From an uncultured Candidatus Binatia bacterium (GTDB taxonomy: Bacteria; Desulfobacterota; Binatia; UBA9968; JAJDTQ01), in the NCBI GenBank assembly GCA_965214905.1, contig OZ243984.1, forward strand, positions 2,369,037 to 2,433,036: a stretch of DNA of 64,000 bases, given 5' to 3'. A program made the translations under genes and the position numbers. The notes beneath the pieces were generated by a model. The model did not search any database and was not told the origin of the DNA. It saw only the letters and a list, made by a program, of their open reading frames with translations. How positions within the stretch are numbered: the stretch's first letter is position 1; each line of letters starts with the position of its first letter. Positions 30,029-46,640 of the stretch are shown here, piece by piece.

Positions 30029-30062
30029 CGCTGAACGCCTGTCGGCTCTACGGCGTTCGTCA

Positions 30063-30360: not shown

Positions 30361-30389
30361 AGGCTAAGGTGTAACCCGTTGGTTGTCAA
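30361..30389 (-). promoter_or_regulatory. Putative sigma70 promoter for the 83-aa ORF
   Basis: Minus-strand TTGACA-17 nt-TAGCCT. Confidence 0.5.
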
Positions 30390-30575: not shown

Positions 30576-31763
30576 TCAGGATGAGCGCACCGGCTTGATT
30601 CTCGACAATCCAGCTAACGTCTCGTCAATGAGGCCCACAGCATCTTCGACGTCTTCGTCACTTGTATCGAAGCCGAGGCTGAAACGGATAGAAGCCTCGG
30701 CCTCGTCAATGTTCAGACCAATGGCCCTTAAGACATGCGAAGGCTCCGGGATACCGGAGGTGCAAGCCGAACCCGTTGAGGCCGCGAGTCGCGGTTGAAG
30801 CGTCCCCAAAGTGTCATGCGCGGCAAAACCCGCGAAGCGTACATTAGCGTTGCCCGGATGCCGGTCGCGACCTGCAGGGCCGTTTACCGCCATCGGCCAC
30901 GTCATGTCCTTCAGCTTTTCGATGAACGTGTCGCGCCGACGGCTCAGGTTCGCGCGCTTTTTCTCGGCGGTGTCGCCAACCAGCAAATCTGCCGCAGCCC
31001 CCATGCCGACGCAGAGTGGAACGGGAACGGTGCCTGAGCGCAAACCGTTTTGTTGGCCACCGCCGTAGATCAGGGGTTCGAACCTGTCTTGCAACGCGCG
31101 CGCGATATAGATGGCACCGATCCCTTTCGGCCCGTACATCTTGTGTGATGAGAGACTGAGAACATCAGTGTGCCTTCCTATTTCTTCGACGTTCATTGCA
31201 ACAGGCGCTTGTGCCGCATCGCAATGGAATAGTGCGCCGCAGTCTCTTACGAGCCGCGAGATTCCCTCTATCTCCTGTATGGTTCCGATCTCGTTGTTCA
31301 CCGCCATAACCGACACGGCGAGAACATCTTCGTCCAAGGTTGCTTCGAGAGCCGACAGCTTCACGAAGCCTTCGCCATCGACGGGGATCGACTCGACGAT
31401 GAACCCGTAGCACTCGTCCAGGACTTTTCCCACCGCCAACACGCATTTATGCTCGATGGCGCTCAGCAGAATTCGACGGCGCTTGCCGCCCGCCGCGTAG
31501 CGTCGGAGGCCGAGCAGAGCAAGATTGTTCGACTCGGTTGCCCCGGACGTGAATGTGATTTCGTTCGCGTCCACGCCGATCAGGTGTGCGACTCGCGCGG
31601 CGGCGTCCTCGACGGCTTGCGAAGATTCCCACCCGAGGCAATGATCCGACGAGTGCGGATTACCGAACGACTCGCTGAAATAGGGCGTCATTTCGGCAAA
31701 AACATGCGGATCGACCGGGGTCGTGGCCTGATGATCAAGGTAGATGATGTCCCCGATTTTCAT
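30576..31763 (-). CDS. sspA: Cysteine desulfurase of phosphorothioation system (SspA/DndA-type)
   Basis: YLDHQATTP, FTSGATESNN, HCDAAQ, SSHKMYGPKG (PLP Lys), STGSACTSG (catalytic Cys). Divergent from sspBCD. Confidence 0.85.
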   Translation of the reverse strand: MKIGDIIYLDHQATTPVDPHVFAEMTPYFSESFGNPHSSDHCLGWESSQAVEDAAARVAHLIGVDANEITFTSGATESNNLALLGLRRYAAGGKRRRILLSAIEHKCVLAVGKVLDECYGFIVESIPVDGEGFVKLSALEATLDEDVLAVSVMAVNNEIGTIQEIEGISRLVRDCGALFHCDAAQAPVAMNVEEIGRHTDVLSLSSHKMYGPKGIGAIYIARALQDRFEPLIYGGGQQNGLRSGTVPVPLCVGMGAAADLLVGDTAEKKRANLSRRRDTFIEKLKDMTWPMAVNGPAGRDRHPGNANVRFAGFAAHDTLGTLQPRLAASTGSACTSGIPEPSHVLRAIGLNIDEAEASIRFSLGFDTSDEDVEDAVGLIDETLAGLSRIKPVRSS

Positions 31764-31853
31764 TATAATTCAACGAGTTGGAATCACAAAGGCTTGCTGA
31801 TGGCCGGGTTCCGGCGACCTGTGCTTCTGGATGCATCGTCCAGTAGCTATCTG

Positions 31854-31883
31854 TTGACCATAGCCCAACTCGGCGGCTATAGT
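31854..31883 (+). promoter_or_regulatory. Putative sigma70 promoter for sspBCD
   Basis: TTGACC-18 nt-TATAGT, with ATAGCC-N9-GGCTAT spanning the spacer. Confidence 0.5.
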
Positions 31884-31919
31884 CGAACTGGAGGCATCAT
31901 CCAGTGACCGAGTGAGGGC

Positions 31920-32873
31920 ATGGCACGCGGTCCTTTATATCAAACAGGCTACATCCCGCAATTCTCGGGACACGAGACCTTCCCACTCCGCTACGGGTGG
32001 TTGAAGAAGGTGTACGACCGCGTCGCTGAAACCGAAGACCAACCCGGCAACAGGGCCGCCTGTTGGGACCACAACGCCATCGCGCGATTCGGCGTCGGCA
32101 AGAACATGGTCGCGTCGATGCGCCATTGGGCGAAAGCCACTGGTGTAATCCACGAGCCGGAAACGAGTTCCGTTCGAACGACGGAACTAGGCGCACTCCT
32201 GTTCGGCCCGGAAGGCATTGATCCGTATATGGAGCACCCCGCTACGCTGTGGCTGATCCATTGGCAGTTGGCGGCCCGGGAAGAGAAGACGACATGGTTC
32301 TGGGCATTCAGCCACTATCCCGCCGTCACCTTCGAGCGGGACGGGCTGATCAAGAGGCTCGACCGCCTTGCCAGGGACCGTAGTTGGCCTCAGCCCGCTG
32401 GCACTACCATAAGAAATGACGTCGCATGTTTCATTCGCACCTATGTTGCGCGGCAACTGTCCGGCAAGACCGGGTACGATGACGCGCTTGAATCACCTCT
32501 TACGGAACTCGGGCTGATCAAGGCCATCGGCAAGAAGGACGGCTTCCGCTTTGTGCGAGGCCCCAAGACGACATTGGGCGATGGTGTTTTTACCTATGCG
32601 CTGATCGCCTTCTGGTCGGGCTACGCTCCGAATGTCGCCACGCTCTCGTTCGAGGCCATCGCCCATGCGCCCGGCGGGCCTGGTCGCGTATTTCTTTTCG
32701 ATGAAAACGATGTGGCTGACCGCTTGGCGAGGCTGGAAGACGAGACGGACGGCGCGCTCCGCTGGACCGAAACCGCCGGGATAAAGCACGTTGAGCGCAA
32801 CGTCGAAATCAGTAAAGAGGTGGCCTTGGCGCGGATTCGAGGCGATTATGGTGTGGCTATCGAGGAGGCATAA
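31920..32873 (+). CDS. sspB: DUF4007 family protein (SspB nickase-like)
   Basis: FSGHETFPLRYGWLKK, FGVGKNMVASMRHW, DPYME..TLWLIHW, ESPLTELGLI. Confidence 0.85.
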   Translation: MARGPLYQTGYIPQFSGHETFPLRYGWLKKVYDRVAETEDQPGNRAACWDHNAIARFGVGKNMVASMRHWAKATGVIHEPETSSVRTTELGALLFGPEGIDPYMEHPATLWLIHWQLAAREEKTTWFWAFSHYPAVTFERDGLIKRLDRLARDRSWPQPAGTTIRNDVACFIRTYVARQLSGKTGYDDALESPLTELGLIKAIGKKDGFRFVRGPKTTLGDGVFTYALIAFWSGYAPNVATLSFEAIAHAPGGPGRVFLFDENDVADRLARLEDETDGALRWTETAGIKHVERNVEISKEVALARIRGDYGVAIEEA

Positions 32874-35800
32874 TGGCGCTCAACGAACGTGTCCAGATCG
32901 CCCGTCGTTTTCTCAGATCGATCCGTATTGATGCCGATCTCGGTGACGCGGCCGCCCTTGAAGGATTCGTTTGTCCACAGTCATCCGCCGATGTTCTGGC
33001 AACGATGGCGCGCCACGTCGCCGAAACGGGCCAGGGAGCATTCACGTGGACAGGTCCCTACGGCAGCGGCAAATCGAGCCTCGTCGTGGCCCTGAGCGCC
33101 TTGCTGAACGGTAAGGCCGGTTTGCAGAAGGAGGCCGCCGGGGTTTTTGGAGAGAATCTGGCGAAAACGATCCGGACCGCGTTACCGACCGGCACGAAGG
33201 GATGGCGCATTCTTCCCGTCGTCGCGCGTCGCGACGACCCCATCGCGGTCATCGGCGAGGCCGTGAAGCGAACAGGACTCGTGGCACGGCAGCCACGCGA
33301 CGGCTGGACTGAAAGCAATCTGATCGACACCCTGACCGAGGCTGCTGCATCCAAGCCGAAGACCCACGGCGGGCTACTCCTGGTCATCGACGAGTTGGGT
33401 AAGTTTCTGGAGGCTGCCGCGCGGGATGGCTCCGACATCTACATCCTCCAGCAGCTTGCCGAAGCCGCGTCGCGAAGCAAGGGGCGTTTTCTTGTCGTCG
33501 GCGTGTTGCACCAAGCGTTCGAGGAATACGCCCATCGCCTCTCGCACGAAATGCGCGACGAGTGGGCGAAGGTTCAGGGGCGTTTCATCGACCTCGTCGT
33601 CAACACCGCGGTTGAAGAGCAAATCGACCTGATTTCACGCGCCATCGAGAGTGACTATTGTCCAAAGAAGCCCGGCCCGCTCGCATCCGCCGTCGCCGGT
33701 TTCGCACGTCGCGAGCGCGCTGGTGACGTGGCACGGCTCGCCGCAATACTGGAAGCATGCTGGCCACTGCATCCCGTTGTCGCTTGTATGCTTGGACCGA
33801 TATCGCGACGGCGATTCGGACAAAATCAGCGCAGCATATTCGGTTTCCTGAATTCCTCCGAACCGCACGGATTTCAGGACTATCTGAACCATGACGAGGA
33901 CGGCGAGTTGTACGGACCCGACCGGCTTTGGGACTATCTCCGCGCCAACCTGGAACCGTCCATCCTCGCTTCGCCGGACGGACATCGGTGGGCCTTGGCA
34001 GTGGAAGCGATCGAACGATGCGAATCCATTGGCGGCGACGCCCTTCATGTCAGGTTACTCAAGGCAATCGCCGTCATGGACCTCTTCAAGGAGCGCTCGG
34101 GCCTCATGGCAAATTCCGACCTGCTGCGCACCTGTTTCCAGGGTACATCGGACAAGGCGCTTGAAACGGCGCTCTCGCAACTGGACGCATGGTCGTTCAC
34201 GATCTTCAAGAAATTCCTCGACGCACGCGCCATCTTCGCAGGGAGCGATTTTGATATTGATCGAGCGGTGCGGGCCGCGCTCGCCGAGTTTGACGAGGTG
34301 GATCTCACCGAGTTGAAATCCGTCGCGGGACTTCAGCCGATCCTTGCCAAGCGCCACTATCATGACACCGGCGCACTGAGGTGGTTCGACGTAAACGTCG
34401 TGCCAATCAGCGGCCTCGTCGAATTTGCCACGAGGTTCGAGCCGCAGAACGGCGCAATAGGACAATTTCTGCTGGCGATTCCGACCGCGGGAGAGAGCGA
34501 GGACTGCGCCGAGGACCTGTGCCGCAAAGCCGCACGGCAAAGCGGTGCATGGGATATCGTCGTCGGGATTTCGAAGAGGTCATGGGCGGTTGTGTCCCTG
34601 GCGCGCGAGCTGTTTGCGCTTGTAAGTGTCAGCAACGATCACCCGGAACTCGCGGGCGATTCCGTTGCGCGGCGGGAAGTCTCCGCTCGCCTTGCGGCCT
34701 TGCAGGCCCTGCTGGAAATCGAACTACGCAAGGCATTCGACAGTGCGCTGTGGTTCCGGAAAAGCTACCAGCCCAAATCCCTGCGGCAGGCCGAACTGAA
34801 CAGCCTTGCCTCCGACTTGGCAGACTGCCGCTTCGCGAAGTCGCCGCGGCTGCATAACGAATTGCTGAGTCGGCAGAAACCGTCAAGCAATGCCATCGCA
34901 GCACAGAACGCCCTGTTGCACCGCATGGTCCTGAACAAGGGCGAGGCTCGCCTTGGTATCAAAGGGTACCCGGCCGAGGGTGGACTGTTCGAATCCGTCC
35001 TGGAAGCGACTGGGCTCTATGCCCGGGAAGGCAAAGGGTGGCGATTCGTTGCCCCGACGAATGGTTCAGATCCTTGCCACCTCGCCCCGCTGTGGACTGT
35101 CGCGCTCGACTATGTGAAGGAACGCGCCTCGCGCACCGTCGCGGTGGCCGAGCTGTTTGATCTATGGGGCAGGCCGCCCTTTGGAGTGAAGGCCGGCCTC
35201 ATGCCGATCCTCGTTGTCGCATTCGTCCTGTCCCAGCACAAAAAGCTGGCGGCCTACCGGAATGGCATATTCAGGACCAAGTTCGACGACGTGGACGTGG
35301 AGTATCTGGCCAAGGACCCGAGCGTCATCCGGTTGCGCTGGATGGACCTGACCGATGTCGCACGCCGCCTGTTGTCGGGTATCGCTCAGGTAGTCCGCGA
35401 TCTCGATGACGAGAACGAGCTTGTTCACCTGGAGCCCATCGACGTCGCGCGTGGCCTTGTCGGGATCTACGACCGCCTTCCTCGATGGACGGGTCTAACG
35501 ATGCGACTATCATCGAATGCTGTGAAGATTCGCGATTTGTTCAAACGGGCGCACGATCCCAACCAATTCCTATTCGACGACATACCGACAACGCTTGGCG
35601 AAGACGTTTCGCCTGCCAATGACGACGGTTTGCACCGCGTCGTCGCCAGCATCCGCGAAGGCTTGGATGAGCTGGTACGGGCCTACCCGTCGATGCTTCA
35701 CCGCTTGCGCGATATCACGCTGGAGGAATTGCAGGTTCCCAACGTCTCTCCGCCGTCCCTGGTGGAATTGCGCGAGCGCGCCGAGAATATCAGGCAGCTT

Positions 35801-36262
35801 GCCGGAGACTTCCGGCTCGACGCCTTCGTCGGCCGACTGGCACAGTTCGACGGTTCGGACGAGAGTTTCGAGGGGATTGCGAGTCTTGCCGCGAACAAGC
35901 CGCCGCGTGAATGGGTCGATCCCGATATAGACCGTGCGATAATCGAGCTCGCCGACATGGCACAGAAATTCCTCCGGGCCGAGACGTATGCGCGCGTTCA
36001 AGGCCGCCGCGACAAGCGCCAAGCCATGGCCGTTATCATCGGGTCGGTCGGTCGGCCGGCACCGCAGTTCGAAGAATTCGACATTACGGACTCCGACCGT
36101 GTTGCGGTCAACGATCTCATCGAGCGTGTCACGGCTTCGTTGACGGAAGCCGACACTAGCCGGCGCAGCATCATTCTCGCGGCGTTAGCGGAACTCAGCA
36201 CGCGCTACATGCAAAATTCTCCGCTTGTACAAAAGAAAGGAAACGGGAGGGTCGCTTCTTGA
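32873..36262 (+). CDS. sspC: SspC-type large ATPase
   Basis: FLRSIRID, Walker A GPYGSGKSS, Walker B IDELGKFLE, EWAKVQGRF, FGQNQRSIFGFL, PPFGVKAG. TAATG coupling to sspB. Confidence 0.82.
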   Translation: MALNERVQIARRFLRSIRIDADLGDAAALEGFVCPQSSADVLATMARHVAETGQGAFTWTGPYGSGKSSLVVALSALLNGKAGLQKEAAGVFGENLAKTIRTALPTGTKGWRILPVVARRDDPIAVIGEAVKRTGLVARQPRDGWTESNLIDTLTEAAASKPKTHGGLLLVIDELGKFLEAAARDGSDIYILQQLAEAASRSKGRFLVVGVLHQAFEEYAHRLSHEMRDEWAKVQGRFIDLVVNTAVEEQIDLISRAIESDYCPKKPGPLASAVAGFARRERAGDVARLAAILEACWPLHPVVACMLGPISRRRFGQNQRSIFGFLNSSEPHGFQDYLNHDEDGELYGPDRLWDYLRANLEPSILASPDGHRWALAVEAIERCESIGGDALHVRLLKAIAVMDLFKERSGLMANSDLLRTCFQGTSDKALETALSQLDAWSFTIFKKFLDARAIFAGSDFDIDRAVRAALAEFDEVDLTELKSVAGLQPILAKRHYHDTGALRWFDVNVVPISGLVEFATRFEPQNGAIGQFLLAIPTAGESEDCAEDLCRKAARQSGAWDIVVGISKRSWAVVSLARELFALVSVSNDHPELAGDSVARREVSARLAALQALLEIELRKAFDSALWFRKSYQPKSLRQAELNSLASDLADCRFAKSPRLHNELLSRQKPSSNAIAAQNALLHRMVLNKGEARLGIKGYPAEGGLFESVLEATGLYAREGKGWRFVAPTNGSDPCHLAPLWTVALDYVKERASRTVAVAELFDLWGRPPFGVKAGLMPILVVAFVLSQHKKLAAYRNGIFRTKFDDVDVEYLAKDPSVIRLRWMDLTDVARRLLSGIAQVVRDLDDENELVHLEPIDVARGLVGIYDRLPRWTGLTMRLSSNAVKIRDLFKRAHDPNQFLFDDIPTTLGEDVSPANDDGLHRVVASIREGLDELVRAYPSMLHRLRDITLEELQVPNVSPPSLVELRERAENIRQLAGDFRLDAFVGRLAQFDGSDESFEGIASLAANKPPREWVDPDIDRAIIELADMAQKFLRAETYARVQGRRDKRQAMAVIIGSVGRPAPQFEEFDITDSDRVAVNDLIERVTASLTEADTSRRSIILAALAELSTRYMQNSPLVQKKGNGRVAS

Positions 36263-37098
36263 TGACCGATCCTGTGAAACACGTACTTGGCCTGTCCGGG
36301 GGACGCGACAGCGCGGCGCTCGCGGTTTACATGCGACAGCGCTATCCGGAACTCGAAATCGAATACTTTTTTACGGATACGGGCAAGGAACTGCCCGAGG
36401 TCTACGAATATCTCGGGCGGCTGGAAGGATTTCTCGGTCAACCGATACGCAAGCTGAACCCCGACCGTGACTTCGACTTCTGGCTCAAGCAGTACAACGA
36501 TTTTCTTCCCTCGCCACGCTCGCGCTGGTGCACCCGGCAGCTCAAACTCCGTCCGTTCGAGCACTGGCTTCGCCCGATTCTGTCCGAGGGGAGGATAGTC
36601 TATAGTTACGTCGCGATCCGCAGTGACGAGGAATACCGCGAAGGTTACTCTTCCAGACATGACAATCTAGTCATCAAGCTACCGTTCAAACAGGCGGGGA
36701 TCGGCAAGGCCGGCGTTCTTGAAATACTCGACGGAGCCGGCCTCGGTCTACCCGAATACTACTCCTGGCGCACACGTAGCGGCTGCACTTTCTGCTTTTT
36801 CCAGCAAAAGATCGAATGGGTGCGTCTGAGGGAACAGCATCCCGAAGCCTTCGAAGAGGCCAAGGCTTACGAGAAGGACGCGGTCGCCCACGGCTCGCCG
36901 TTTACGTGGAGTCAAGGCGAGTCACTGGAAGAGTTGGCGAAACCGGACCGCATCGCGCAGATCAGGGCTGATCACGAAAAGCGGCTCGCCCGTGTGCGGT
37001 CCAATGTTCAGCCCAACCCGCTAAGGCCCGACAGCGAACCGCTCGACATCGACGACCTGTACGGGCAGGCGAAGGTGTGTCTTGCCTGCCACAAATAG
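36259..37098 (+). CDS. sspD: PAPS reductase family protein (SspD)
   Basis: PP-loop SGGRDS, DTGKELPE, RWCTRQLK, RSGCTFCFFQ, terminal CLACHK. Overlaps the sspC stop. Confidence 0.85.
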   Translation: MMTDPVKHVLGLSGGRDSAALAVYMRQRYPELEIEYFFTDTGKELPEVYEYLGRLEGFLGQPIRKLNPDRDFDFWLKQYNDFLPSPRSRWCTRQLKLRPFEHWLRPILSEGRIVYSYVAIRSDEEYREGYSSRHDNLVIKLPFKQAGIGKAGVLEILDGAGLGLPEYYSWRTRSGCTFCFFQQKIEWVRLREQHPEAFEEAKAYEKDAVAHGSPFTWSQGESLEELAKPDRIAQIRADHEKRLARVRSNVQPNPLRPDSEPLDIDDLYGQAKVCLACHK

Positions 37099-37111
37099 GT
37101 CTCAGGAGCAC

Positions 37112-39022
37112 TCAGGAGCCGTTTTGGTCCCCGTCTTCGCCAGCGATATCCGTCACTTTGACGATCAACGCCGCTTTACGGATTTCGCCGACGATATCGC
37201 TTCCTTCGTCGAATTCGCCGCCTCGGATGACCGCGGCATAGACCTTATTGTCATTCGCCTTGATGATCTTCCTGCCTGCGTCAGTGGACATCTCGATCTC
37301 GCCCCGCTCGAACCTCGTGAAGAAGCCGCGGTCCGCCTTTACGGCTGCAAGGGAGGCCCGGGCGGAGTCCTGAACGGCATCCTCACCCAACGCCTGCAAA
37401 GCCTGTTCTATGTGATCACAAGTTTGCTCCGTCAGGACCAACCGGTGTACCGGCTGCGGGCTTTTGCCACGCCCGACATAGCAGGCAGCGGAGTCGATCT
37501 GCTCGACAGCAAGTTTACGCGCCTTGCAGTCGCTCCCTACGTAGAACAACGAGACGGCAACCGGGAACGGGACCGGCAGGTTGGCGGGCCGACCTATTCG
37601 GCCTAGGTCCGCAAGGAGCATTTGCTGAATTTCGATTGCGTAGAGTTCCCGAAGCCGGCCGATACGCTTTAGACTGGCGTCCTCCCCGACCAACCTGTCT
37701 AGCTCGTCCCACTCCAGACTTCTGACATTCTTGAGGTTCCACCTGATCCACTTCCGCCCCTCGTCGGGCAGTATTATAATGGCCGTTCTGACCGGGCCGG
37801 CCTTGTAGGACCAATTCTTGGGCTGAAGCTCTTCGAGCGTGCCTGAAAGCAGCATGACGCGCTCGGCACCGTCGCGCACAAGATCACATGCCGGACTCAC
37901 GACCAGCGAAACAGCATCACCGCAACCATCCCCCTCATCGGCCTTCCAACGCAGCACATCGCCAAACTGCAATTGCGCCTTGTCTTCGTTCACCGAAAGA
38001 CACAGGCGATCCGGGTGCAAAAACACCATGCGGTGCACGAGTTCCTGTAAATCTGGTGAACCGGCCAGATGAGGGGCCGGGTATTTTCCCAGTTCGATTT
38101 TATTCAGCTCCAGAGCCGACGCAATCGTATTGTCGTCATCTTCTATCTCATGCTGCAAAACCCGGTCGGCAACATCGAGAAGATACTCACCGAGGCTCTG
38201 GCCCTCGAAGTCAAGCAGCAGCGCCCGCACTTGTGCAAGGTCCGACAAATCCAGACGGCGCAGGATACGGACAAAACTCTGCCGTGCATGGTCGAGGCCC
38301 CTGTCCCACGCATGGACGAAGCCAGCGACACGTTTTGCGTCCTCGTAGTGATTCGCAAGCCTCGTCAGCAGGGTCTCCAGCGTTCCTTTTTTAGCGAGGT
38401 CGGCTTTGCTGACAACACGAAACGTGGACCCTAAGAGTCCCGCCGTATCCCGAAACTCGTTTCGTTTTTCCTGAAGCTGGGGACTACGTGACATGAGGAC
38501 GACGAGAGGCGGGGTCTGCACACGGCCTTCGACCAGTTCCCCGACACGTCGGACCGCTCGGTCCATATCGTCTTCGGACTGGTGAAAGCCCAGGAACAGG
38601 TCGATAAAGATCAGCTCTGCTTGCTTCGCTCTCTCGTCAAGTTCGCGCCCCATCGTTGTGCAGACAAGTCCCAGTGCTTCCAGTGCGGTGACGAGGGCAT
38701 CGAGGCCCGCACGTTCCGTAGTCTTCGTCTCAGCATAATCGCGGAACAGGTGATCGCTAGTCGCGTTCGGCAGCTTCGCTCGGTTGTCCCAAACTACCGT
38801 GATGAACGCCTGCGATGCCTTCAACTCTTCAGCCGATGCTTCTTCATACCCCTCATGCAATTCCTTGAGCAGCTCGTTTCCGGTATCGCCAAGGTCATCG
38901 AAGAAATTCGACCAGTCACCATCATTGAGTTCGTCGGGACGCGGAACGGCGTCAAACACGTCGTCTATGACGACGGCGCGTGTGATTCCCCGTGCTGCGA
39001 GACGATCCTTCAGTTCCGTCAT
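37112..39022 (-). CDS. Large response-regulator receiver-domain protein
   Basis: REC-like elements AVVIDD, LIFIDLFLG, LVVLMSRS and VSKADL, split by an insert. C-terminal GDVL..LVVSPACDLVR domain. ATGA-coupled to the upstream kinase. Confidence 0.65.
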   Translation of the reverse strand: MTELKDRLAARGITRAVVIDDVFDAVPRPDELNDGDWSNFFDDLGDTGNELLKELHEGYEEASAEELKASQAFITVVWDNRAKLPNATSDHLFRDYAETKTTERAGLDALVTALEALGLVCTTMGRELDERAKQAELIFIDLFLGFHQSEDDMDRAVRRVGELVEGRVQTPPLVVLMSRSPQLQEKRNEFRDTAGLLGSTFRVVSKADLAKKGTLETLLTRLANHYEDAKRVAGFVHAWDRGLDHARQSFVRILRRLDLSDLAQVRALLLDFEGQSLGEYLLDVADRVLQHEIEDDDNTIASALELNKIELGKYPAPHLAGSPDLQELVHRMVFLHPDRLCLSVNEDKAQLQFGDVLRWKADEGDGCGDAVSLVVSPACDLVRDGAERVMLLSGTLEELQPKNWSYKAGPVRTAIIILPDEGRKWIRWNLKNVRSLEWDELDRLVGEDASLKRIGRLRELYAIEIQQMLLADLGRIGRPANLPVPFPVAVSLFYVGSDCKARKLAVEQIDSAACYVGRGKSPQPVHRLVLTEQTCDHIEQALQALGEDAVQDSARASLAAVKADRGFFTRFERGEIEMSTDAGRKIIKANDNKVYAAVIRGGEFDEGSDIVGEIRKAALIVKVTDIAGEDGDQNGS

Positions 39023-41391
39023 GAGACCACAACCTCGTCCGGCAGTTGCAGCACAAAACGGTGAAGGCGTCCCGTCCAGCGATTAACGTGATTGTCAAGC
39101 GTCAGGCTGCCACGATGATATTCAGCGCATTCACGCGCGATATACAAGCCAAGCCCCCGGCGCTTCGACTTCTCCTTTAGAGAGAAAAAGGCACGAAATA
39201 CGCTTTCACGATTCTCTTGAGCAATTCCGCGACTATTATCCTCATAAGTGATCGTTAGGGGGTTGCCTTCCACCGCAATGTCGATCCGCGGCTGAAAGTC
39301 GGGCTCATGCTGTTTGCGGAGGTCGAGCCAGTACAGCGAGTTGGACAAGAGGTTTTCGAAAATCTGTACGATCATGCCCTTCACCGCGTGGATGCGGACG
39401 GCGTTGTCAGGCAAGCTGAGCTTGAGTTTTACGTCATGACGTTCGAACTGAAACTCGTGCCCACTCAGCATGTCTTCAATCAACGTCCCGATATCGAAGG
39501 TCTCCTTGCGTTGTCGCCCTGATATGCTCAGTGGGTCGAGCACACGGATGCGTTTGTTAACCGACATCATTTCCGATCTGAGGGCGTTGAGCAGCCCGTC
39601 GATCTGTTCCGGCAAGTCTCTGCCGCGCAGAGCCTCAAGGGCCGCTAGCGCATTCTCGGTCGATCGCGCAAGTTCATGCGCTACAACTTCGACCAAAAGG
39701 CCCACGCCCGCCATCTGCACCATCCGTCGGTTCTCGCTCTCTACTTCGTCGATCCGGCGCTGCGTTCGGTCGAAGAATTCCTTAATCCCGAAGAGGGTGT
39801 GCTGCAACTCCTCGATCGTCTCCGAGGACTGCGGTGCAATTCGCCTGATCTGGCGGAGAGCGGCCTTCGCTCTCTCTTCGAGGTTCGACACATCGGTTTT
39901 TGCTTCGGTCATGTCGAGAGGTTGGTCCTTGTGACGACGCTCGATTTCCCGAATGAAATCGCGAAGCTGAGACTGAATAGCGAGCTGCAACAAGCTGACA
40001 AACGCCTGCTGTTCAGGGCAAACTCGCAACCCTTCGCGGTTTGTCTGGTCAATCAGCAACGGATTGCCAAGACGAGAGATTGTGACTCGTCCGACGAACT
40101 GTGTCTTGTTCAACAGATATCCGGTGCTGCCCAGAGCGCGTCGGTCCAGAGCAAGCCAGTCGTCATCATCTTCCCCATAGGGGAGTACGCGAAACCCGTC
40201 GCGGAACAGCAGGATCCCTGACCACTGTCTTTGTAGGTCACGGACGATCTTCCGATCGCCGATGCTGTCGATGTGGCCGAGTCGCTGCCGGTTAAACCAG
40301 TAGACCTCGAACTCGAACGGTCCAAGGTCATTGAGTGCGGACAACGGAACCTCGCCGGAGGTGCCGCTAACCGAACCTTCGAGGTCGGCCAGCGCGAGTT
40401 CTCTCTTCTCCACTTCGTGCGGATGCTCGAACCCAAGATCAAGTGCCTCTAAAGTGCACTGTAACGCTGGTCCTAGTTTCCTGTATACGAAGCGGCCCCT
40501 GACAGACGCATGAGCGTGCGAGAGCAGGTTTCGATCCATATGTGCCACCGGCATGCGTGTGCCGTTCCAAAAGATCGCGATGCGTGGACGCCGTTTCGCA
40601 TCGGCAAACGGGTCGGTCAGCCGCGCAAAATCATGCTTGCCGAGATATTCAACGCGATCATGCGTCCAGTCCGCAGTGAGCGCGGTCACAATCAGCTTCG
40701 TGCCGCTCCAGTTCCTGTCTGGCTTGGACATGCCGCGCTCGGGCGTGACATCAATCTCCTCCAGCATCACGTCGAGATCTTCGAAGGCTGACCAGTCGAT
40801 TTTGAGCAGGTTTAGCCGCTTGTCGCTACGCTCGGCCGTTTCGACCGTCAGCCGTTCGCCGAGCCGCATCGCCGACAGCCGACCGATGCCTTTCTCGCCG
40901 AGGAACGGCGGGCGCCGGTCTCCGGCGTGATGTCCCGCAAGGGCCGCATCGATCTCGCGTTTGCGCGATGCCGTGCCGATGACGAGATAGTTGTCTATCA
41001 AATCCTGTCGCGACATCCCCGAGCCTTCGTCGGACATGATGACCTTGTTCTCCGAAGCGTGCACGGAGTCCAGCGCCCCAACAAGTTCTTCCAGATTATC
41101 CGCGCCCTGTATCGCTTCGCGGAAACGGTTCAGCGAGTCCTTGGGCGCCGATTGGTCCAGTGATTTCTGAATATCGGATTTCAGACGCTCTATATCTGCT
41201 AGTCCTTCGACCGCCCGATGACGGAATTTCAGGTAATCGTTCCGTCTCAGGATGATCTCGAAACGAATCTCTGCTCCCGTCGGAGACTCGGCATCGAATG
41301 CATTCTTGATAAGTTCATAGAACGCGATGATATCGGAGCTGATAAGTTCAGCGCCTAGCTCCAGAACTGTCCGGGCACAAATCTTGAACAA
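39019..41391 (-). CDS. GHKL (MORC/Hsp90-like) ATPase fused to histidine kinase
   Basis: N-terminal GHKL: ELIKNAFDA, DEGSGMS, GEKGIGRLS, GTKL. C-terminal kinase: H-box VAHEL, N-box ENLLSNS, DNSRGI, FFSLK, GLGLYIA. No TM segment. TTG start after GGAG. Confidence 0.85.
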   Translation of the reverse strand: MFKICARTVLELGAELISSDIIAFYELIKNAFDAESPTGAEIRFEIILRRNDYLKFRHRAVEGLADIERLKSDIQKSLDQSAPKDSLNRFREAIQGADNLEELVGALDSVHASENKVIMSDEGSGMSRQDLIDNYLVIGTASRKREIDAALAGHHAGDRRPPFLGEKGIGRLSAMRLGERLTVETAERSDKRLNLLKIDWSAFEDLDVMLEEIDVTPERGMSKPDRNWSGTKLIVTALTADWTHDRVEYLGKHDFARLTDPFADAKRRPRIAIFWNGTRMPVAHMDRNLLSHAHASVRGRFVYRKLGPALQCTLEALDLGFEHPHEVEKRELALADLEGSVSGTSGEVPLSALNDLGPFEFEVYWFNRQRLGHIDSIGDRKIVRDLQRQWSGILLFRDGFRVLPYGEDDDDWLALDRRALGSTGYLLNKTQFVGRVTISRLGNPLLIDQTNREGLRVCPEQQAFVSLLQLAIQSQLRDFIREIERRHKDQPLDMTEAKTDVSNLEERAKAALRQIRRIAPQSSETIEELQHTLFGIKEFFDRTQRRIDEVESENRRMVQMAGVGLLVEVVAHELARSTENALAALEALRGRDLPEQIDGLLNALRSEMMSVNKRIRVLDPLSISGRQRKETFDIGTLIEDMLSGHEFQFERHDVKLKLSLPDNAVRIHAVKGMIVQIFENLLSNSLYWLDLRKQHEPDFQPRIDIAVEGNPLTITYEDNSRGIAQENRESVFRAFFSLKEKSKRRGLGLYIARECAEYHRGSLTLDNHVNRWTGRLHRFVLQLPDEVVVS

Positions 41392-41505
41392 GCCAACTAT
41401 CTCCGTTTGTTACGCGGCTTCCCAATTACTCCTGCCCAATTGCTGCCAGCAAATTCGACTCTTCTCCAAGCATTTTCACCAAACGAACTCGACATACACC
41501 TGCTC

Positions 41506-41967
41506 CTACGCGGCCTTCTCTTTGCGCAAAAGAGTGTCAACGGCGTCCGACAGGTTCCAGATCGGTTCCGCACTGCCGTCCTGGAGCATTTCGATGACGC
41601 GTGGCAGACCCGCGGCTGCCAAGCCGTTGGCAAGGGTCATCATCTTGCGCGGGTCCGACACGATCCGGATGTCGCCCGTCTTGCCGATTGCGATCAACAT
41701 CAGCGTGTCGACGCGCCACGGGTCGTTGCCGAAGATCGAACCGTCGATGATTTTCCGCGTGTCGTGTGTCGCCACGTCGGCAGGGGCTAGGCCGAGCCGC
41801 GTCGCAACGCAGACGGATAGGAACCAGAGATCGACCATGCGCGGAAACGGGCTCTGGTCCATCACCGGGTTGGCGCTGCGCTGGCAATACCGCGTGAACG
41901 CCTCGTGGAACTCCACCGGCACGTTGATGTCGATTGCCTGGAACGGGTTGAAGTAGCGATCTGCCAT
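41506..41967 (-). CDS. pbeD: PbeD-like / DndE-like small phosphorothioation-associated protein
   Basis: 153 aa directly after the SMC-like ATPase. FPRMVDLWFLSVCVA and ANGLAAAGLP resemble Dnd-associated small proteins. Assigned mostly by position. Confidence 0.5.
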   Translation of the reverse strand: MADRYFNPFQAIDINVPVEFHEAFTRYCQRSANPVMDQSPFPRMVDLWFLSVCVATRLGLAPADVATHDTRKIIDGSIFGNDPWRVDTLMLIAIGKTGDIRIVSDPRKMMTLANGLAAAGLPRVIEMLQDGSAEPIWNLSDAVDTLLRKEKAA

Positions 41968-41976
41968 CGTCGCCCT

Positions 41977-44115
41977 CTATGACGCCATGTCCAGTTCGAC
42001 GCGCGCATCCGGGCGACGCTGACAGAGCCGGCAATCGCCTTTGTGATTGCACCTGCAACGGAGGACTTTGCGTTCCTCGACTCCCGGATCGTTCAAGAGC
42101 ATCTTCGGGTAGTGTGCCGGATTGGTCAGGGTGAACACCACCCCGGCGCCCTGGTCGATGATGTCCTCGCAGCCCGCGATTTCATCGTGCGTCAGAAACA
42201 GAATCAGTTGAGTGCTCTCCTGTATCGCCGTGCGCAGGATGGAGCGCTTTACGAACCCGCTCGTCATCCCGAGCGGGGTGTCTATCACGTTCGGCGCTTC
42301 GACTTCGCTCACCTTCGTCAGCGCGAGAATGAAGGCGAGCGTCAGCGCCCGTCGCGATGCTCCGTTCAGGTCCCGGTCGGGGTTGAGTGTCTTGTTGTTC
42401 GGCCCGTAAACGATGATGTCGAATTCCTGGCTGATCTCGGTGCGCTGAATAATCGCACCCTGTTCCGGATCCGCGCCGATCATCTTCAGAAACAGGCTGT
42501 TCATCAGATCGCTGACTTTCTGCAATTCCTCTTTTGTGATCCGCTCATACGCGCTTTGCAGCACCTTCATTACATCTTTGGTGACGTCCCGCTCAGCCAG
42601 AATCCGCGCTCCCTTCTTATCTTCACGCAACAGATGATCACGCTTGGCTTCCAGCTTTTCTTGATTGCGCCGCAGCTCGATGAGTTGGGTTTCAAAGGCC
42701 GACCGATCCGACAGGCGGCGGTCGCGCTGCTCCATGTACACGCGGCGTGTTTCGCGGAGACCCTGAACATTCGTGTCGGGCAGCGAGTCCAGTTTCTGTT
42801 CCAAGGCCCGGAACCTCCGGCCGGCTTCGTCGCGAAAGTGCTGAAGACCGTTACGCTGCTCAATGACCTTCTTGTAGTCCTCAAGCCACGCGTTCGACCC
42901 GACGTCGCTGCCAGCCTGCAAGGGTTTCGCACCGAAGTACAGGTTGGTGACCAACTCCTCGGTTGCGTCGGCGTCGTGGCTTTCGTCGATCAGCTTCCGG
43001 ATATGTACGCGCCGCTTGTTGCCACCCGGGTCGCCGGGTTCCAAGGTTTCGCCGCAGATGCAGATTTCCGCTGCGAGACGTTCCTGAAGCACGGGGACCG
43101 TTGTGTTCGGGATCTTGCCCTGGTCGTGTAGCTCTTCCAGCTTTTCGAAAGCACGACCAAGCACCGGAGCGAGCAAGTCGGTCGCAATAGACCGGCTGCG
43201 AAACAGCTCTGAGTGGGCCTTGTTCGCCTCGACAAGCTGCCCGTCGAGCCGCTTGATCTCGTCCCTTTCGTGTTCGAGGTCTCGGCGCAGCTTTTCCTTG
43301 TCACCTTTCTGGAGGGATGCGGCGATCTTGCGGTCGATCCCGTCGACCTTCTCGTCGAGGTCCCCGAACTGCTGTTTTGCCTCGTCAAGACCGGATTCGA
43401 GGTTCTCACGCTGCTTCCCCAGCGCTTCGAGGCTCGAGGCGATCGTGCTCAGTTCGCCGCCCGTGCGGACCTGCTTTGCCTTCTTGTTCACTTCCGTCTC
43501 CGATTTGTGTACATGCTTGATCGCGTTGTCGATCACGCCGAGCCCGAGAAGGGAACGTATCGCCCGTTGCACGCGTTCGCGTTTGGCGGATAGGGTGACA
43601 TCCGCCTCGATGAAGCGCAGCGCGCGGTCGCCGTCCGTGAAAAAGACATCCCTTAGCTCCGGCGGCAGTTCGTCGTTGATCAGCGATTCCGGCGCCTCAA
43701 AAAGACTTGCGCCGGTGTCGGTCAGTTGGAAAAGCCTGACTGTAGAGGCGGAGCGCACATGCGTATCTACGTCCTCGAACGAAGAACGCACGAGGCGGTA
43801 GCGCCAGCGGGTTTCGCGCAATTCCCCGTCGACCTGCCGGTAGTTCCTAATCTCGAATTCGACCGTGGCCGTGATCGGCACACTCTTGCCATCCCTCGCA
43901 TCCCAGTCGATGGGATGCAGGCGAAACCCCTGGCCCTTGCCGGGCAGAGCCGCGTCGCCGTAGAGGGCCCATTGAAGGCCGTGGAGGATCGAGGTCTTCC
44001 CGGACTCATTCGAGGCGCGGATAACCGTCAGCTTCCTGTCGGGATCGCTGGAGAATTCAAGCTCAAGGTCTCGGAGCAGCCGAAAGTTCTGAAATTCGGC
44101 GCGAAGCAGCTTCAT
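41977..44115 (-). CDS. pbeC: SMC/Rad50-like CxC ATPase (PbeC/DndD-like)
   Basis: FQNFR, Walker A ASNESGKTS, FFTDGD, long coiled coil with central CICG hook, signature LNGAS, Walker B VIDTPLG, LFLTHDE. Confidence 0.72.
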   Translation of the reverse strand: MKLLRAEFQNFRLLRDLELEFSSDPDRKLTVIRASNESGKTSILHGLQWALYGDAALPGKGQGFRLHPIDWDARDGKSVPITATVEFEIRNYRQVDGELRETRWRYRLVRSSFEDVDTHVRSASTVRLFQLTDTGASLFEAPESLINDELPPELRDVFFTDGDRALRFIEADVTLSAKRERVQRAIRSLLGLGVIDNAIKHVHKSETEVNKKAKQVRTGGELSTIASSLEALGKQRENLESGLDEAKQQFGDLDEKVDGIDRKIAASLQKGDKEKLRRDLEHERDEIKRLDGQLVEANKAHSELFRSRSIATDLLAPVLGRAFEKLEELHDQGKIPNTTVPVLQERLAAEICICGETLEPGDPGGNKRRVHIRKLIDESHDADATEELVTNLYFGAKPLQAGSDVGSNAWLEDYKKVIEQRNGLQHFRDEAGRRFRALEQKLDSLPDTNVQGLRETRRVYMEQRDRRLSDRSAFETQLIELRRNQEKLEAKRDHLLREDKKGARILAERDVTKDVMKVLQSAYERITKEELQKVSDLMNSLFLKMIGADPEQGAIIQRTEISQEFDIIVYGPNNKTLNPDRDLNGASRRALTLAFILALTKVSEVEAPNVIDTPLGMTSGFVKRSILRTAIQESTQLILFLTHDEIAGCEDIIDQGAGVVFTLTNPAHYPKMLLNDPGVEERKVLRCRCNHKGDCRLCQRRPDARVELDMAS

Positions 44116-44357
44116 GAGTCCGATTCCTCCGTCCGTGCGTCCTGACCGCGATGAGACGTCAGGAACTGCGCAGCGGCGTTGCATTTGTCGTTTATCTTCT
44201 TCTGGATGTTAGTCGCTGACACACGATGAGCTCGCTCATCTTGCAGAACTTCGACGGTCACTTTCCTGATCCGGTCCCTGTAGCCCTTGCACCGTTCCTC
44301 AATCCCATCGCATTCCTCAAGGATGATCGAGAATATCTTGTTTTCGTTCAGCGGCAT
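44112..44357 (-). CDS. pbeB: PbeB-like small protein
   Basis: 81-aa helical protein between the helicase and ATPase. RBS GGGGGAGG; ATGA overlap with pbeC. Confidence 0.55.
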   Translation of the reverse strand: MPLNENKIFSIILEECDGIEERCKGYRDRIRKVTVEVLQDERAHRVSATNIQKKINDKCNAAAQFLTSHRGQDARTEESDS

Positions 44358-44376
44358 CTGGCCTCCCCCCGAGCTG

Positions 44377-46536
44377 CTACAGGTATACAGCGTCTACCAT
44401 TCTGTCAATGGTCGCCAGCGGTCCGTCCGGCCTGCCCGCGTTTTTTGCCAACCGGGCAAACTCCTGCGCCCGGCGCAGTTCCGAGCGCACGAGCGCCCGC
44501 GCGTCGGCATCGAGCCCTTCGTCCATGCCGGGCGGCAGCGCCAGCAGGTCGTGAATGACGCTGTGCGTCTTGCCGATGGCGCTGCATGTGCGCAACAGTC
44601 GCCCTCGCCGCTGCACCCATTGTCGCTCAACCGTTGTGCTCGCGAGGACGAACGCCTTGCATATCTGCGGGATGTTCACGCCTTCGTCGAGCACGCGCTT
44701 TGCGGTGAGGACCTGGATTTCACCGTCCTGGAAGGACTGTATGATCCGCTTCGTCCGCTCGCGGTTTGCCGTCTCTTCGGCCGTGAGCTGGTGGAACAGA
44801 ATGCATCTGTCTCGCAGCAGGCGGTTCACGTTGTCGATCTGGCTCGGCCCCTTGTCGGAAGTGTAGACGAGCGTGTGTCGCAGGCTGCGGTTATCCTGCT
44901 TGTCAAGCAGCGCGTTCAGCATCGGGACTTTCCCCGATGCCGTTTCCAGCAACGCGCGGCGGTCCCGCAAAAGCTTGGCGAGGTGGTCGTCCGGCTTGTC
45001 GCCCTCGCTGCGCCACGCGTTCTGCTTGATCTTGCCGGTCAGATCGAACCAGTCGTCCATCTCGGTGTTCGTCAGGTACACCGGATGGACGTAATAGTCG
45101 TACTCCACAAGGCAGCGGCCTATGGCTTCTTCGAGCGTGAAGCGAAACGCAACGGGGCCAAAGAACCCGAACAGCGCTTCGGTCCCTTCCTCGTCGTACT
45201 GACGTATCGGTGTGGCCGAGAGGCCGAGGCGATGCTCGAAGAATTCCGGCGGGTTAGCGATGAAGGAGTGCCGCCCCAAGTTGTGCGCCTCGTCCGCGAT
45301 CAGCAAGCGCACACAGTCGAACGCTCCGACGGCGTCACGGAATTCCGGAGTACACAACGTATCGTGACTTACGACGATGGTTTCGACGTTCGACACTCCG
45401 GTGCGCAGCCGCCGCTCCAGTTTTTTCAACTCGCGTGCGCGCTTTGCAATACCGCCCGCCGTCGTGAGATTGACCGGCTTCAAGCCGAACGGCGCAATTT
45501 CATCGCACCACTGTTCGATCAACGGCACATAAGGCGCGGCGACTACAATCAGGAGCGGCTTGTGCCGTTGGTAGAGGCGGTACGCGCCGATCATGGATGT
45601 GATCGTCTTGCCCGAGCCGGTCGCCATTTCCAGAACGCCGCGATACCCCGCCTCGCACCATGCCTCGACCGCTTTTCCTTGGTGTTCGAAAGGTCCGTCT
45701 TCATAACTCAGCCAGCCCGGTATCGCGAAACTCGTCGCCGGTACTGAAACGGCCTTGTAGGGTTCCGGCTCCTCCGCTACGCCTGCCGCGCGACCATAGA
45801 GAGCACGCAGCTCATCTTCGGTCGGTGGGAATTCTGAACTGTAAGTCCGCAGCAGGCGCTGTCTGACCGCCTCCGGCATTGCTATAACGATACAGTTTTC
45901 GTCCTTGTTCTCCCACAACCGGCCGAATTCGGTGCGAAGCTTGTCAGTAATATAACGCTGATTCGGGTCCTGCCATGACCTGGACACGGCGATCTGTTCA
46001 ACGTTCCTCCAAATGCCTGCAACGGTTACGTTGCTCGACCCGTGCGCCGCGGCGACATCCGCCCTGTTCTCGAAGAGCCAGACCTTGGGATGAAAGAGAG
46101 CATCCTTCATCAGGGCGATCTTGATTTCGATTCTGCGCTCCCGAAGCAGCCACGACAGGCACTTCAGAGTATGGAGTTGAAGCAGGTCCTCCGTGACGGT
46201 CAGTTCTTCGAGAATCCCGCCCGCTATTGCTTCCGCTGATTTCAGGCCGTCCTCTATGGCCGCTTGGTCTTCGCGCCGTAGCAGGGGGCTTACGATAAGC
46301 CGGAAGCTGTTCTCGGAACCGGAGACGTAAGTCGCGAGGCCGGGGGCGAGCGAGGCCAGCACCTCGCTTGAGAAGAACCCAACCATGCAATCGACCTTCC
46401 CTGCCACCCGGAAGCCCGGAATCAGGACTTCCTCTGCCAGCGGATCCGCTGGCAGCATGTAGAGTGGCCGGACTCCGTCCAGTAACCGCAGCGGTCCTTC
46501 CGCCGTTGCGATCACGGGATCGTCCTGCATGTCCAT
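44377..46536 (-). CDS. pbeA: PLD-like nuclease + SF2 (DEAH) helicase (PbeA-like)
   Basis: VGFFSS, FHPKVWLF..HGSSN (HxK..GSxN PLD), MATGSGKT, DEAH, SAT, LDEGVNIP, QRRGRLLR. ATG 46536 follows AAGGAGG. Confidence 0.75.
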   Translation of the reverse strand: MDMQDDPVIATAEGPLRLLDGVRPLYMLPADPLAEEVLIPGFRVAGKVDCMVGFFSSEVLASLAPGLATYVSGSENSFRLIVSPLLRREDQAAIEDGLKSAEAIAGGILEELTVTEDLLQLHTLKCLSWLLRERRIEIKIALMKDALFHPKVWLFENRADVAAAHGSSNVTVAGIWRNVEQIAVSRSWQDPNQRYITDKLRTEFGRLWENKDENCIVIAMPEAVRQRLLRTYSSEFPPTEDELRALYGRAAGVAEEPEPYKAVSVPATSFAIPGWLSYEDGPFEHQGKAVEAWCEAGYRGVLEMATGSGKTITSMIGAYRLYQRHKPLLIVVAAPYVPLIEQWCDEIAPFGLKPVNLTTAGGIAKRARELKKLERRLRTGVSNVETIVVSHDTLCTPEFRDAVGAFDCVRLLIADEAHNLGRHSFIANPPEFFEHRLGLSATPIRQYDEEGTEALFGFFGPVAFRFTLEEAIGRCLVEYDYYVHPVYLTNTEMDDWFDLTGKIKQNAWRSEGDKPDDHLAKLLRDRRALLETASGKVPMLNALLDKQDNRSLRHTLVYTSDKGPSQIDNVNRLLRDRCILFHQLTAEETANRERTKRIIQSFQDGEIQVLTAKRVLDEGVNIPQICKAFVLASTTVERQWVQRRGRLLRTCSAIGKTHSVIHDLLALPPGMDEGLDADARALVRSELRRAQEFARLAKNAGRPDGPLATIDRMVDAVYL

Positions 46537-46574
46537 GTCGGCTATGTCGCCTCCTTCTCGTGTTCCTACCATCT

Positions 46575-46640
46575 CCGTACGCTTCGACCGGCGTGCGACC
46601 GGCCAGTGCCGAGTGCGGGCGCACCTCGTTGCAGTTGGCC
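46575..46640 (-). mobile_element. IS3/IS481-like transposase C-terminal remnant
   Basis: Minus frame reads NCNEVRPHSALAGRTPVEAYG, matching the YNxxRPHSALxxxTP end of integrase-core transposases. Confidence 0.6.

Follow-up and report, generated by a model that had tools for sequence, protein, structure and literature searches.

A soluble histidine kinase and a receiver protein with a MazF/CcdB-type fold look like a partner of the SspABCD phosphorothioation module

In a 64,000-nucleotide (nt) stretch of contig OZ243984.1 from an uncultured Candidatus Binatia bacterium (the whole of which is called the window here), two overlapping genes lie between the ssp genes for DNA phosphorothioation and the pbeABCD genes, one encoding a histidine kinase of 790 amino acids (aa) and the other a receiver protein of 636 aa. 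This kinase-receiver pair looks like an undescribed partner of the Ssp phage-defence system. With a probability of about one half, we consider it a cytoplasmic His-to-Asp phosphorelay of the Ambrosia-type class defined by the Pfam families HEF_HK (PF19191) and Response_reg_2 (PF19192), which is coupled to SspABCD instead of a DNA methylase and most likely serves as a non-modifying, restriction or abortive arm.

The linkage of the pair to Ssp was determined from 67 related loci, collected by a pattern scan with one genome per species that was built on a closer alignment of 19 receiver sequences. The loci were searched by tblastn with nine window proteins, and Ssp was counted as present when SspD or SspC was found in the flanks (10 kb). 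They are distributed over Pseudomonadota, Acidobacteriota, Gemmatimonadota, Bacteroidota (Rhodothermales), Planctomycetota, Verrucomicrobiota, Spirochaetota and other phyla. A kinase homologue was located directly upstream of the receiver gene on the same strand in 62 of the 67 loci, and the five exceptions are disrupted or contig-edge copies (L022, L029), N-terminal fragments of both genes (L066) and lone receiver fragments (L049, L065). SspD or SspC was found within 10 kb in 58 loci; the other nine have no Ssp in their flanks, and five of these are on truncated contigs. The order sspD-kinase-receiver on one strand, with a gap of 16-198 nt, was observed in 24 loci, and in 19, as in the window, sspD lies beyond the 3′ end of the receiver gene and converges on it. 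PbeA and PbeC together were present in only 15 loci, so that the pair does not constantly co-occur with pbeA and pbeC. Taken together, the frequency of Ssp, the low frequency of Pbe and the position of the pair directly after sspD indicate that the partner of the pair is the SspABCD modification module, and the pair is near-obligately linked to sspBCD. A first-pass annotation of the sequence had proposed a signalling layer on a phosphorothioate (PT) system; the connection to PT modification agrees with these counts, and its tie to pbeABCD does not.

The loci lacking Ssp in the flanks were inspected for DUF4007 (sspB) at the genome level. Other parts of the L030 and L024 genomes contained DUF4007, and those of L011 and L060 gave partial matches; it was not found in the genomes of L003 and L041, nor in the metagenome-assembled genomes, of uncertain completeness, containing only fragments of the pair (L049, L065, L066). 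The receiver fragments in the latter three are consistent with decay of the pair after loss of Ssp. L030 (12292-18869) is the only intact pair whose flanks are complete and yet contain no ssp. Its neighbours are a RecD-like helicase, a short prokaryotic Argonaute (pAgo) with its SIR2-APAZ partner and a relaxase; it probably sits on a mobile element, with sspB on another contig. As a background, 401 genomes of one class, including the centre genome, were searched. DUF4007 exceeded the cut-off in 10 of them, PF19192 was found in 4, and the receiver family in a single one, the centre genome itself; because the family is too rare for a sample-based co-occurrence test, this sample serves as the DUF4007 background only.

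The kinase is a soluble protein with two ATP-binding folds, as the first-pass annotation had described. HATPase_c_3 matched residues 113-205 (E 6e-13) and HATPase_c residues 674-784 (E 1e-15), both above the Pfam cut-off, and both families matched all 57 homologues of the kinase alignment (43-89% identity). Residues 113-277 matched the GHKL head of the BbrUII/HgiDII restriction-enzyme model of NCBIfam (E 5.5e-14), and the PDB sequence matches of the N-terminal head are Hsp90/HtpG N-domains (E 0.003-0.008). In the C-terminal half, residues 500-785 matched many histidine-kinase models of NCBIfam, and the PDB sequence matches of residues 517-786 are LvrB, FixL and CpxA. HEF_HK matched residues 563-623 with 17.0 bits, below its cut-off of 24.1, and reached E ≤ 0.1 in 52 of the 57 family members (best 2.4e-6). 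The sole PADLOC match was a weak one to REase_II (E 3e-6). No 19-residue segment of either the kinase or the receiver reaches a Kyte-Doolittle mean of 1.6 (maximum 1.43), and therefore both proteins are predicted to have no transmembrane helix; a soluble kinase is also characteristic of the HEF_HK/Response_reg_2 class.

The residues required of a classical two-component kinase are all present, namely the phospho-accepting His of the H-box and the N, G1 and G2 boxes. H572, E573, L574 and R576 of the H-box (H-E-L-x-R, VAHEL in the window), which had been called intact, are invariant in the 57 homologues, as are E679, N680 and N684 of the N box and G746 and G748 of the G2 box. D718, N719 and G722 of the G1 box do not vary either; at position 720, more than 90% of the homologues have Gly, and the window has Ser (DNSRG). 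Since Gly720 is nearly invariant in the family, the window departs only locally, by this Ser, from the canonical DNGxG; the G1 box reported earlier as degenerate reads D718-N719-x-x-G722 across the family. The motifs of the N-terminal GHKL domain are similarly invariant (E26, N30, D33, D121, G123, G125, G165-G170 and T231). The middle domain (residues 246-454) matched no Pfam family and contains a dense invariant block, G357...G454; by its position we take it for a MORC-like transducer. The region of approximately residues 455-560, described previously as a coiled coil, is by sequence a helical, charged linker. As to the start of the gene, GGAG is found 10 nt 5′ of the TTG codon, and, of 60 homologues, 26 have TTG at the aligned position and 24 have ATG. 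The two genes are coupled by an ATGA overlap, as noted at first pass, with the kinase stop within the receiver start (...GTC TCA TGA CGG...).

The receiver belongs to a large family in which every member is unnamed or "hypothetical": at E ≤ 0.001, a word-indexed search gave 496 proteins, and the number of cluster representatives (50% identity) reaching this threshold was 753. The window protein matched no family of Pfam (E ≤ 1), NCBIfam or PADLOC and no PDB sequence (phmmer), and a PDB profile search with the family returned nothing but ArtA at E = 1. When 75 homologues (down to 23% identity) were scanned, no Pfam family occurred in more than two, and neither a helix-turn-helix (HTH) family nor PF19192 was among the 25 of 37 families listed; the Response_reg model gave no match in the receiver protein or in more than two of the 75 homologues. 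Defence finders in present use will therefore overlook this family, which none of Pfam, NCBIfam and PADLOC detects.

Nevertheless, the N-terminal part has the fold and residues of a classical receiver domain: an acidic pair, a phospho-acceptor Asp, Ser/Thr, Lys and the (beta-alpha)5 fold. In the AlphaFold2 (AF2) model (predicted local distance difference test, pLDDT, 91.9; predicted template-modelling score 0.88), residues 12-227 align to receiver domains with Z 10.8-12.1 among the VIA-align matches listed, for example to 4kfc_A over 117 residues with a root-mean-square deviation of 2.4. An insert of approximately 95 helical residues separates strand 1 of the REC fold from strand 2, at the usual place of alpha-1, which accounts for the split REC domain recognized in the earlier annotation. 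The REC signature D20, D21, D141, S178 and K206 is invariant in the 75 homologues, and so are P172, E294, D355, C379, G394, W428, R475 and G477, with D380 nearly invariant. No fold was assigned to residues 233-346 by the search with the full model. A complex prediction of kinase residues 540-790 with receiver residues 1-232 (score 0.00, mark 0.32) weighs neither way.

The C-terminal half of the receiver was modelled separately (residues 345-636, pLDDT 87.3), and in this model residues 347-479 adopt the MazF/CcdB/Kid fold. When 48,161 chains were searched with VIA, the top 11 were MazF, CcdB or Kid, with Z 9.5-6.9 and alignments of 90-103 residues, almost the full length of the toxin chain. Only 12 chains of the 48,161 reached Z ≥ 5; CptN scored 6.5, and ToxN and AbiQ about 4.5. 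Foldseek gave 26 matches at E ≤ 0.001 (down to 1e-4, prob 1.00), all of those listed being MazF-type toxins, and the full receiver model likewise gave MazF-type matches. The modelled barrel of residues 347-479 is thus of the MazF/CcdB type. The SPACDL motif, to which the first-pass annotation had drawn attention, comprises the invariant C379 and the nearly invariant D380, and its observation that the C-terminus lacks a recognisable HTH is supported by the Pfam and NCBIfam searches, in which no HTH or other DNA-binding family was found in the 636-aa protein. The fold search for a nuclease or toxin that it had recommended yielded a toxin-type fold, which fits its idea of an effector. Cys379, Asp380 and the conserved Arg cluster are candidate residues of interest in this domain. 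For the last part, residues 480-636, the best fold matches reached only Z about 3 (arylamine N-acetyltransferases, PH domain) in a list dominated by MazF-fold matches. In the Protein Atlas, residues 345-636 corresponded to unnamed clusters of 181-231 aa only; beyond these, there was a weak lead (0.77) to one cluster with PF19192 in 18% of its members.

This lead was confirmed by hhalign. According to the accessible text of Bellieny-Rabelo, Pretorius & Moleleki 2021 (PMC8011034), HEF_HK and Response_reg_2 are soluble kinase-like and receiver-like neighbours with 91.6% linkage, enriched beside type II restriction-modification (R-M) systems and C5 methylases; fusions of MORC-like ATPase and histidine kinase beside R-M methylases, mentioned as known in the first-pass annotation, are therefore on record there. 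The terms phosphorothio-, Dnd, DUF4007, PAPS, sulfur and BREX do not occur in that accessible text. The window pair has in common with this class a soluble kinase with HATPase_c_3 and HATPase_c, and an adjacent receiver-like gene with REC catalytic residues and long loop insertions; the DHp region between the two ATPase domains resembles HEF_HK, in the window below the cut-off of the model. We compared the receiver family with four PF19192 proteins (L087-L090, 527-643 aa) from the 401-genome class sample. The REC core aligned with Prob 94.4% (E 9e-8), and residues 347-479 aligned over 125 columns with the C-terminal domain of the PF19192 proteins with Prob 94.7% (E 6e-8). Three motifs are common to both groups, G-x-(V/I), a C-D pair with Arg three residues on, and R-x-G. 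In addition, a homologue of the DHp-CA region of the kinase was located directly upstream in three of the four. The matches in both the REC core and the C-terminal domain indicate that the pair is a divergent, Pfam-invisible branch of the HEF_HK/Response_reg_2 class, and from the aligned sequences the MazF-fold domain is the predicted shared output domain of the class.

The window branch differs from the class in several respects. The four PF19192 proteins end 5-20 residues after the R-x-G motif (SRVG), whereas the window family has approximately 155 more C-terminal residues, and its REC insert is larger. The modification partner is SspABCD phosphorothioation in the one and a type II or C5 methylase in the other. 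A six-frame search with PF19192 gave no match at E ≤ 1 in the genome of the window, and none in G001, a genome with a member of the receiver family.

A further relative is Ambrosia of Pseudomonas aeruginosa, which, in the accessible part of the preprint (van den Berg et al. 2025, 10.1101/2025.09.30.679545), consists of AbrR-AbrA-AbrB-AbrC-AbrD, namely an XRE regulator, an N6-adenine methylase, a HATPase kinase, a REC+winged-HTH (wHTH) protein and an HNH nuclease. Defence by Ambrosia needs the kinase and the phospho-acceptor Asp60 of the receiver (10.1101/2025.09.30.679545). A DNA-modification enzyme, a kinase with an Hsp90-like ATPase and a receiver protein in one cassette are common to Ambrosia and the window. 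The comparison was made by description, and the five-gene set is not matched, since the window has the kinase and receiver only; no methylase, HNH or XRE family was found among the window island genes scanned with Pfam and PADLOC. The output also differs: the Ambrosia receiver carries a wHTH, and the window receiver carries the MazF/CcdB-fold domain and a further C-terminal domain with no wHTH family, and its cassette modifies DNA by phosphorothioation.

Among the known partners of Ssp, SspE and SspFGH are, like the pair, non-modifying genes beside sspBCD with the same presumed role, the pair occupying the slot after sspD in the 24 loci mentioned above. The PADLOC models of SspE, SspF, SspG and SspH gave no match in the kinase or receiver, and, unlike SspE and SspFGH, the pair includes neither a DUF262/DUF1524 nuclease nor a protein like SspF (Walker-A) or SspH (FtsK-like). 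Its proposed chemistry, His-Asp phosphotransfer, is also different. Work of Xiong and colleagues from 2020 is said to have identified SspE as the restriction partner of SspABCD, with SspABCD alone reportedly able to modify DNA. In the literature searched, no paper linking ssp genes with a histidine kinase/receiver pair and no description of a receiver domain fused to a MazF-type domain was found; the supplements, which were not opened, could list such neighbours. The words histidine kinase, GHKL, MORC, receiver, two-component and HisK are missing from the accessible text of PMC10853773, and for DUF4007 together with histidine kinase only a BREX paper was found, in the accessible part of which the kinase is a Schlafen fusion.

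From these features the following mechanism can be proposed. The MORC-type GHKL head and the middle domain would engage DNA and read PT-marked self versus unmarked or foreign DNA. The signal would pass through the helical linker to the DHp/CA core and lead to autophosphorylation of H572, for which the necessary residues are conserved, and the phosphoryl group would then be transferred to D141 of the receiver, where all five REC residues are invariant. A change at the alpha4-beta5-alpha5 face, transmitted by the long helix 214-255, may free or dimerise the MazF/CcdB-fold and C-terminal domains; MazF-type toxins act as dimers. The freed domains might then halt phage growth, either by binding to or cleaving nucleic acid or by poisoning a target of the host. 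PbeABCD and the other nuclease modules nearby would be interchangeable extra layers outside the pair. A bolder extension, which we regard as doubtful, is that the pair is the missing restriction partner of the "orphan" SspBCD class, in which a MORC-type ATPase reads the PT marks and phosphotransfer switches on a MazF/CcdB-fold toxin domain, and, with the same "PACD" toxin-fold domain at the end of the Response_reg_2 proteins of methylase-linked cassettes (hhalign Prob 94.7%), that the whole HEF_HK/Response_reg_2 class, and possibly Ambrosia-like systems, are phospho-activated toxins gated by epigenetic marks rather than transcriptional regulators.

A number of observations weigh against the pair acting as a restriction or abortive arm. 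No nuclease domain is recognisable in the kinase or receiver. PF02452 matches seven places in the genome of the window, none of them in the receiver gene. Sequence homology to MazF was tried and rejected, as hhalign with five of the MazF copies encoded in this genome gave a Prob of only 5% with a weak alignment, in which the conserved Arg-Pro of MazF was placed opposite an unconserved column of the receiver family. The PF02452 and hhalign results make a canonical MazF RNase mechanism doubtful, and the likeness of the modelled receiver domain to MazF is at the fold level only. Indeed, the domain shares the fold of the MazF/PemK/Kid/CcdB toxins with no match at the sequence level, conserves a Cys-Asp pair and several Arg instead of the Arg-Pro, and, unlike those toxins, is fused behind REC and not paired with an antitoxin. 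The identities of the homologues to the window proteins correlate strongly within the pair (kinase versus receiver, Spearman rho 0.91, n = 59), in favour of the linkage of its two genes, and within Ssp (SspC versus SspD, rho 0.88) and only weakly between the modules (0.20-0.45; receiver-SspD rho 0.22, receiver-SspC rho 0.45), where each rho is a correlation of identities to one reference and not a phylogenetic test. This difference suggests that the Ssp and pair modules have been reshuffled and yet kept together. Finally, separate nuclease modules are present in many of the loci, namely Pbe in 15, a helicase-GHKL-PLD triple in 9, SspE in 2 (L039, L040), HNH-STAND-TPR proteins in 2 (L009, L038) and Mrr-like proteins in 3 (L006, L014, L018). 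The pair could therefore be the sensor or regulator of these modules and not an effector.

Such a regulatory role is the main rival to the effector reading. Here the pair would sense infection or the state of DNA and switch on Ssp or the nuclease modules, transcriptionally or by protein contact, as for AbrB/AbrC. We consider this possible, on the unlikely side. The accessible text of the Ambrosia preprint reports infection-induced expression of the cassette, and its authors propose transcriptional control by the kinase-receiver pair (10.1101/2025.09.30.679545). The window pair is downstream of pbeABCD on the same strand, and the regions of the receiver without a fold match, residues 233-346 and 480-636 (the last 155 residues), leave room for this role and could hide a DNA-binding element. 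On the other hand, the family scans, both of the 636-aa protein and of its 75 homologues, gave no HTH among the families listed, and the conserved output is the MazF/CcdB-fold domain with the invariant C379 and near-invariant D380. The nuclease modules, moreover, vary or are missing, whereas the pair is constant. In several loci with the order sspD-kinase-receiver (L033, L048, L062, L067, L052, L023), the genes after the pair are housekeeping or mobile-element genes, such as lipoyl synthase, TonB receptors, diaminopimelate epimerase, a TetR regulator, Tn7-like genes and IS66; with no nuclease-type gene there, the island can consist, on that side, of sspABCD and the pair alone.

It is improbable that the pair acts on phosphorothioation as such, for example by controlling how active SspBCD is and when, with no direct role in killing phage or cell. 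The near-obligate association with sspBCD, including the genome checks, and the decayed receiver fragments in genomes without DUF4007 would fit a governor, as would the partial and heterogeneous nature of PT modification described in the accessible text of PMC8092258. A toxin-type fold would, however, be an odd output for a housekeeping regulator, and SspABCD alone reportedly modifies DNA in the systems published so far. In the class sample, none of the nine other DUF4007-positive genomes contains the receiver family, indicating that Ssp does not generally need the pair. Least probable of all, and very improbable in our estimate, is that the pair belongs to PbeABCD or is an independent defence system merely sharing an island with Ssp: the one-strand order pbeABCD-kinase-receiver in the window and 14 of the closest related loci, the pbeD-kinase gap without a terminator-like site, and the L030 pair, whose neighbours include a pAgo-SIR2 system and a relaxase and whose genome has ssp on a different contig, would agree with it, but Pbe is far less frequent than Ssp around the pair, which directly follows sspD in 24 loci, and the DUF4007 background of 10 in 401 genomes is far below 58 in 67.

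The reading of the pair as a phosphorelay arm of SspABCD bears on a gap in the Ssp system. According to Wang et al. 2021 (PMC8092258), no restriction partner is known for 83.9% of the sspBCD loci, nor for 2,211 of 2,678 sspBCD clusters. The pair, represented by 753 clusters (50% identity) and found at 67 species-level loci in many phyla, offers a concrete candidate of wide distribution for filling part of this gap. It would also extend a kinase-gated, restriction-like defence class (HEF_HK/Response_reg_2, Ambrosia) from base methylation to phosphorothioation of the backbone. In addition, a toxin-type fold, together with a small set of invariant residues, is hereby proposed for the conserved output domain of the class, for which the Ambrosia preprint, in its accessible part, describes a DNA-binding wHTH output. 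H572, D141, C379/D380 and the ATPase motifs provide handles for experiments.

Table 1. Features of the kinase-receiver pair and of the adjacent ssp and pbe genes (window positions)
Feature	Position	Strand	Basis
Kinase gene, 790 aa, TTG start	39019..41391	-	Open reading frame (ORF) list, translation, Pfam, 57-sequence alignment
Kinase residues 1-245, MORC/MutL/Hsp90-type GHKL ATPase	40657..41391	-	HATPase_c_3, NCBIfam, PDB sequence matches
Kinase residues 246-454, conserved middle domain	40030..40656	-	Invariant block in 57 homologues
Kinase residues 551-640, DHp helices and H-box VAHEL (H572)	39472..39741	-	HEF_HK sub-threshold, invariant residues
Kinase residues 641-790, catalytic ATP-binding (CA) domain	39022..39471	-	HATPase_c, N/G1/G2 boxes
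Receiver-effector gene (putative), 636 aa, ATG start overlapping kinase stop	37112..39022	-	ORF list, AF2 model
Receiver residues 1-232, REC fold with ~95-aa helical insert, phospho-acceptor D141	38327..39022	-	VIA-align, conservation, hhalign
Receiver residues 233-346, helical connector	37985..38326	-	Model helices 214-343, invariant E294
Receiver residues 347-479, MazF/CcdB/Kid-fold barrel (modelled); G354-D355, C379(-D380), R475-G477 invariant	37586..37984	-	VIA, Foldseek, hhalign
Receiver residues 480-636, family-specific C-terminal domain	37115..37585	-	Strands and helices confidently modelled
sspA, cysteine desulfurase	30576..31763	-	PADLOC SspA E 7e-123; Pfam Aminotran_5
sspB	31920..32873	+	PADLOC SspB E 1.5e-105
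sspC	32873..36262	+	PADLOC SspC E 0
sspD	36259..37098	+	PADLOC SspD E 1e-134
Intergenic gap pbeD-kinase, 114 nt	41392..41505	-	
pbeD-like, 153 aa, named by position only	41506..41967	-	No Pfam, PADLOC or NCBIfam model matched
pbeC, probable start M24	41977..44184	-	PADLOC PbeC E 6e-48, match from residue 24
pbeB candidate, 81-aa ORF in pbeB position	44112..44357	-	
pbeA	44377..46572	-	PADLOC PbeA E 1e-189

The pbeABCD genes (41506..46572) are a same-strand neighbour upstream of the pair and not part of it. No promoter-like or terminator-like consensus was found on the minus strand of the 114-nt gap between them (41392-41505). Because the PADLOC match of PbeC starts at residue 24, its true start is probably the Met at about 44115. 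The PbeC protein has a central C-I-C motif (CxC hook) and a C-terminal Cys cluster. On the other side of the pair, sspD and the receiver gene converge with 13 nt between the stop codons, and no terminator-like hairpin is present between them (37098-37112); a similarly tight convergence, of 10-155 nt, is seen in L001, L002, L004, L010, L013 and L029. The G+C content is 0.56-0.61 across approximately 30-46 kb, compared with 0.63-0.69 in the flanks, and the island (30000-46900) is bordered by housekeeping genes, a peptidase M20 (28370-29620) and a molybdopterin oxidoreductase (47004-49400). No tRNA was found in the 64,000 nt, and the ORFs scanned at the edges of the island gave no match to an integrase or transposase family.

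One of the seven PemK/MazF matches of the genome (G000:C1 1449137-1449460, L069) is at the end of a 692-aa open frame, which may represent either a fusion or read-through of an upstream frame. Occasional pseudogenised copies of the pair occur in otherwise intact Ssp/Pbe islands: L017 has a premature stop in the kinase gene (7623-8444), and in L022 both genes were matched only in pieces.

An unnamed protein of approximately 812 aa is encoded beside the pair in L008 (5022-7460), L024 (4156-6594), L053 (11957-14407), L055, L061 (12170-14602) and L063 (11935-14391). In the five copies scanned, HATPase_c_3 matched below the cut-off in L008, L024 and L061, and no Pfam family matched in L053 and L063. 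The three-gene triple counted above consists of an SF2 helicase (ResIII), a HATPase_c_3 protein of approximately 610 aa (PADLOC MzaB-like) and a PLD-type nuclease of approximately 305 aa (DrmC/ZacB-like). It was found at L025 (3116-7496), L027, L035, L034 (11995-16427), L036, L047 (12125-16501), L056, L057 and L064, and looks like another interchangeable restriction module.

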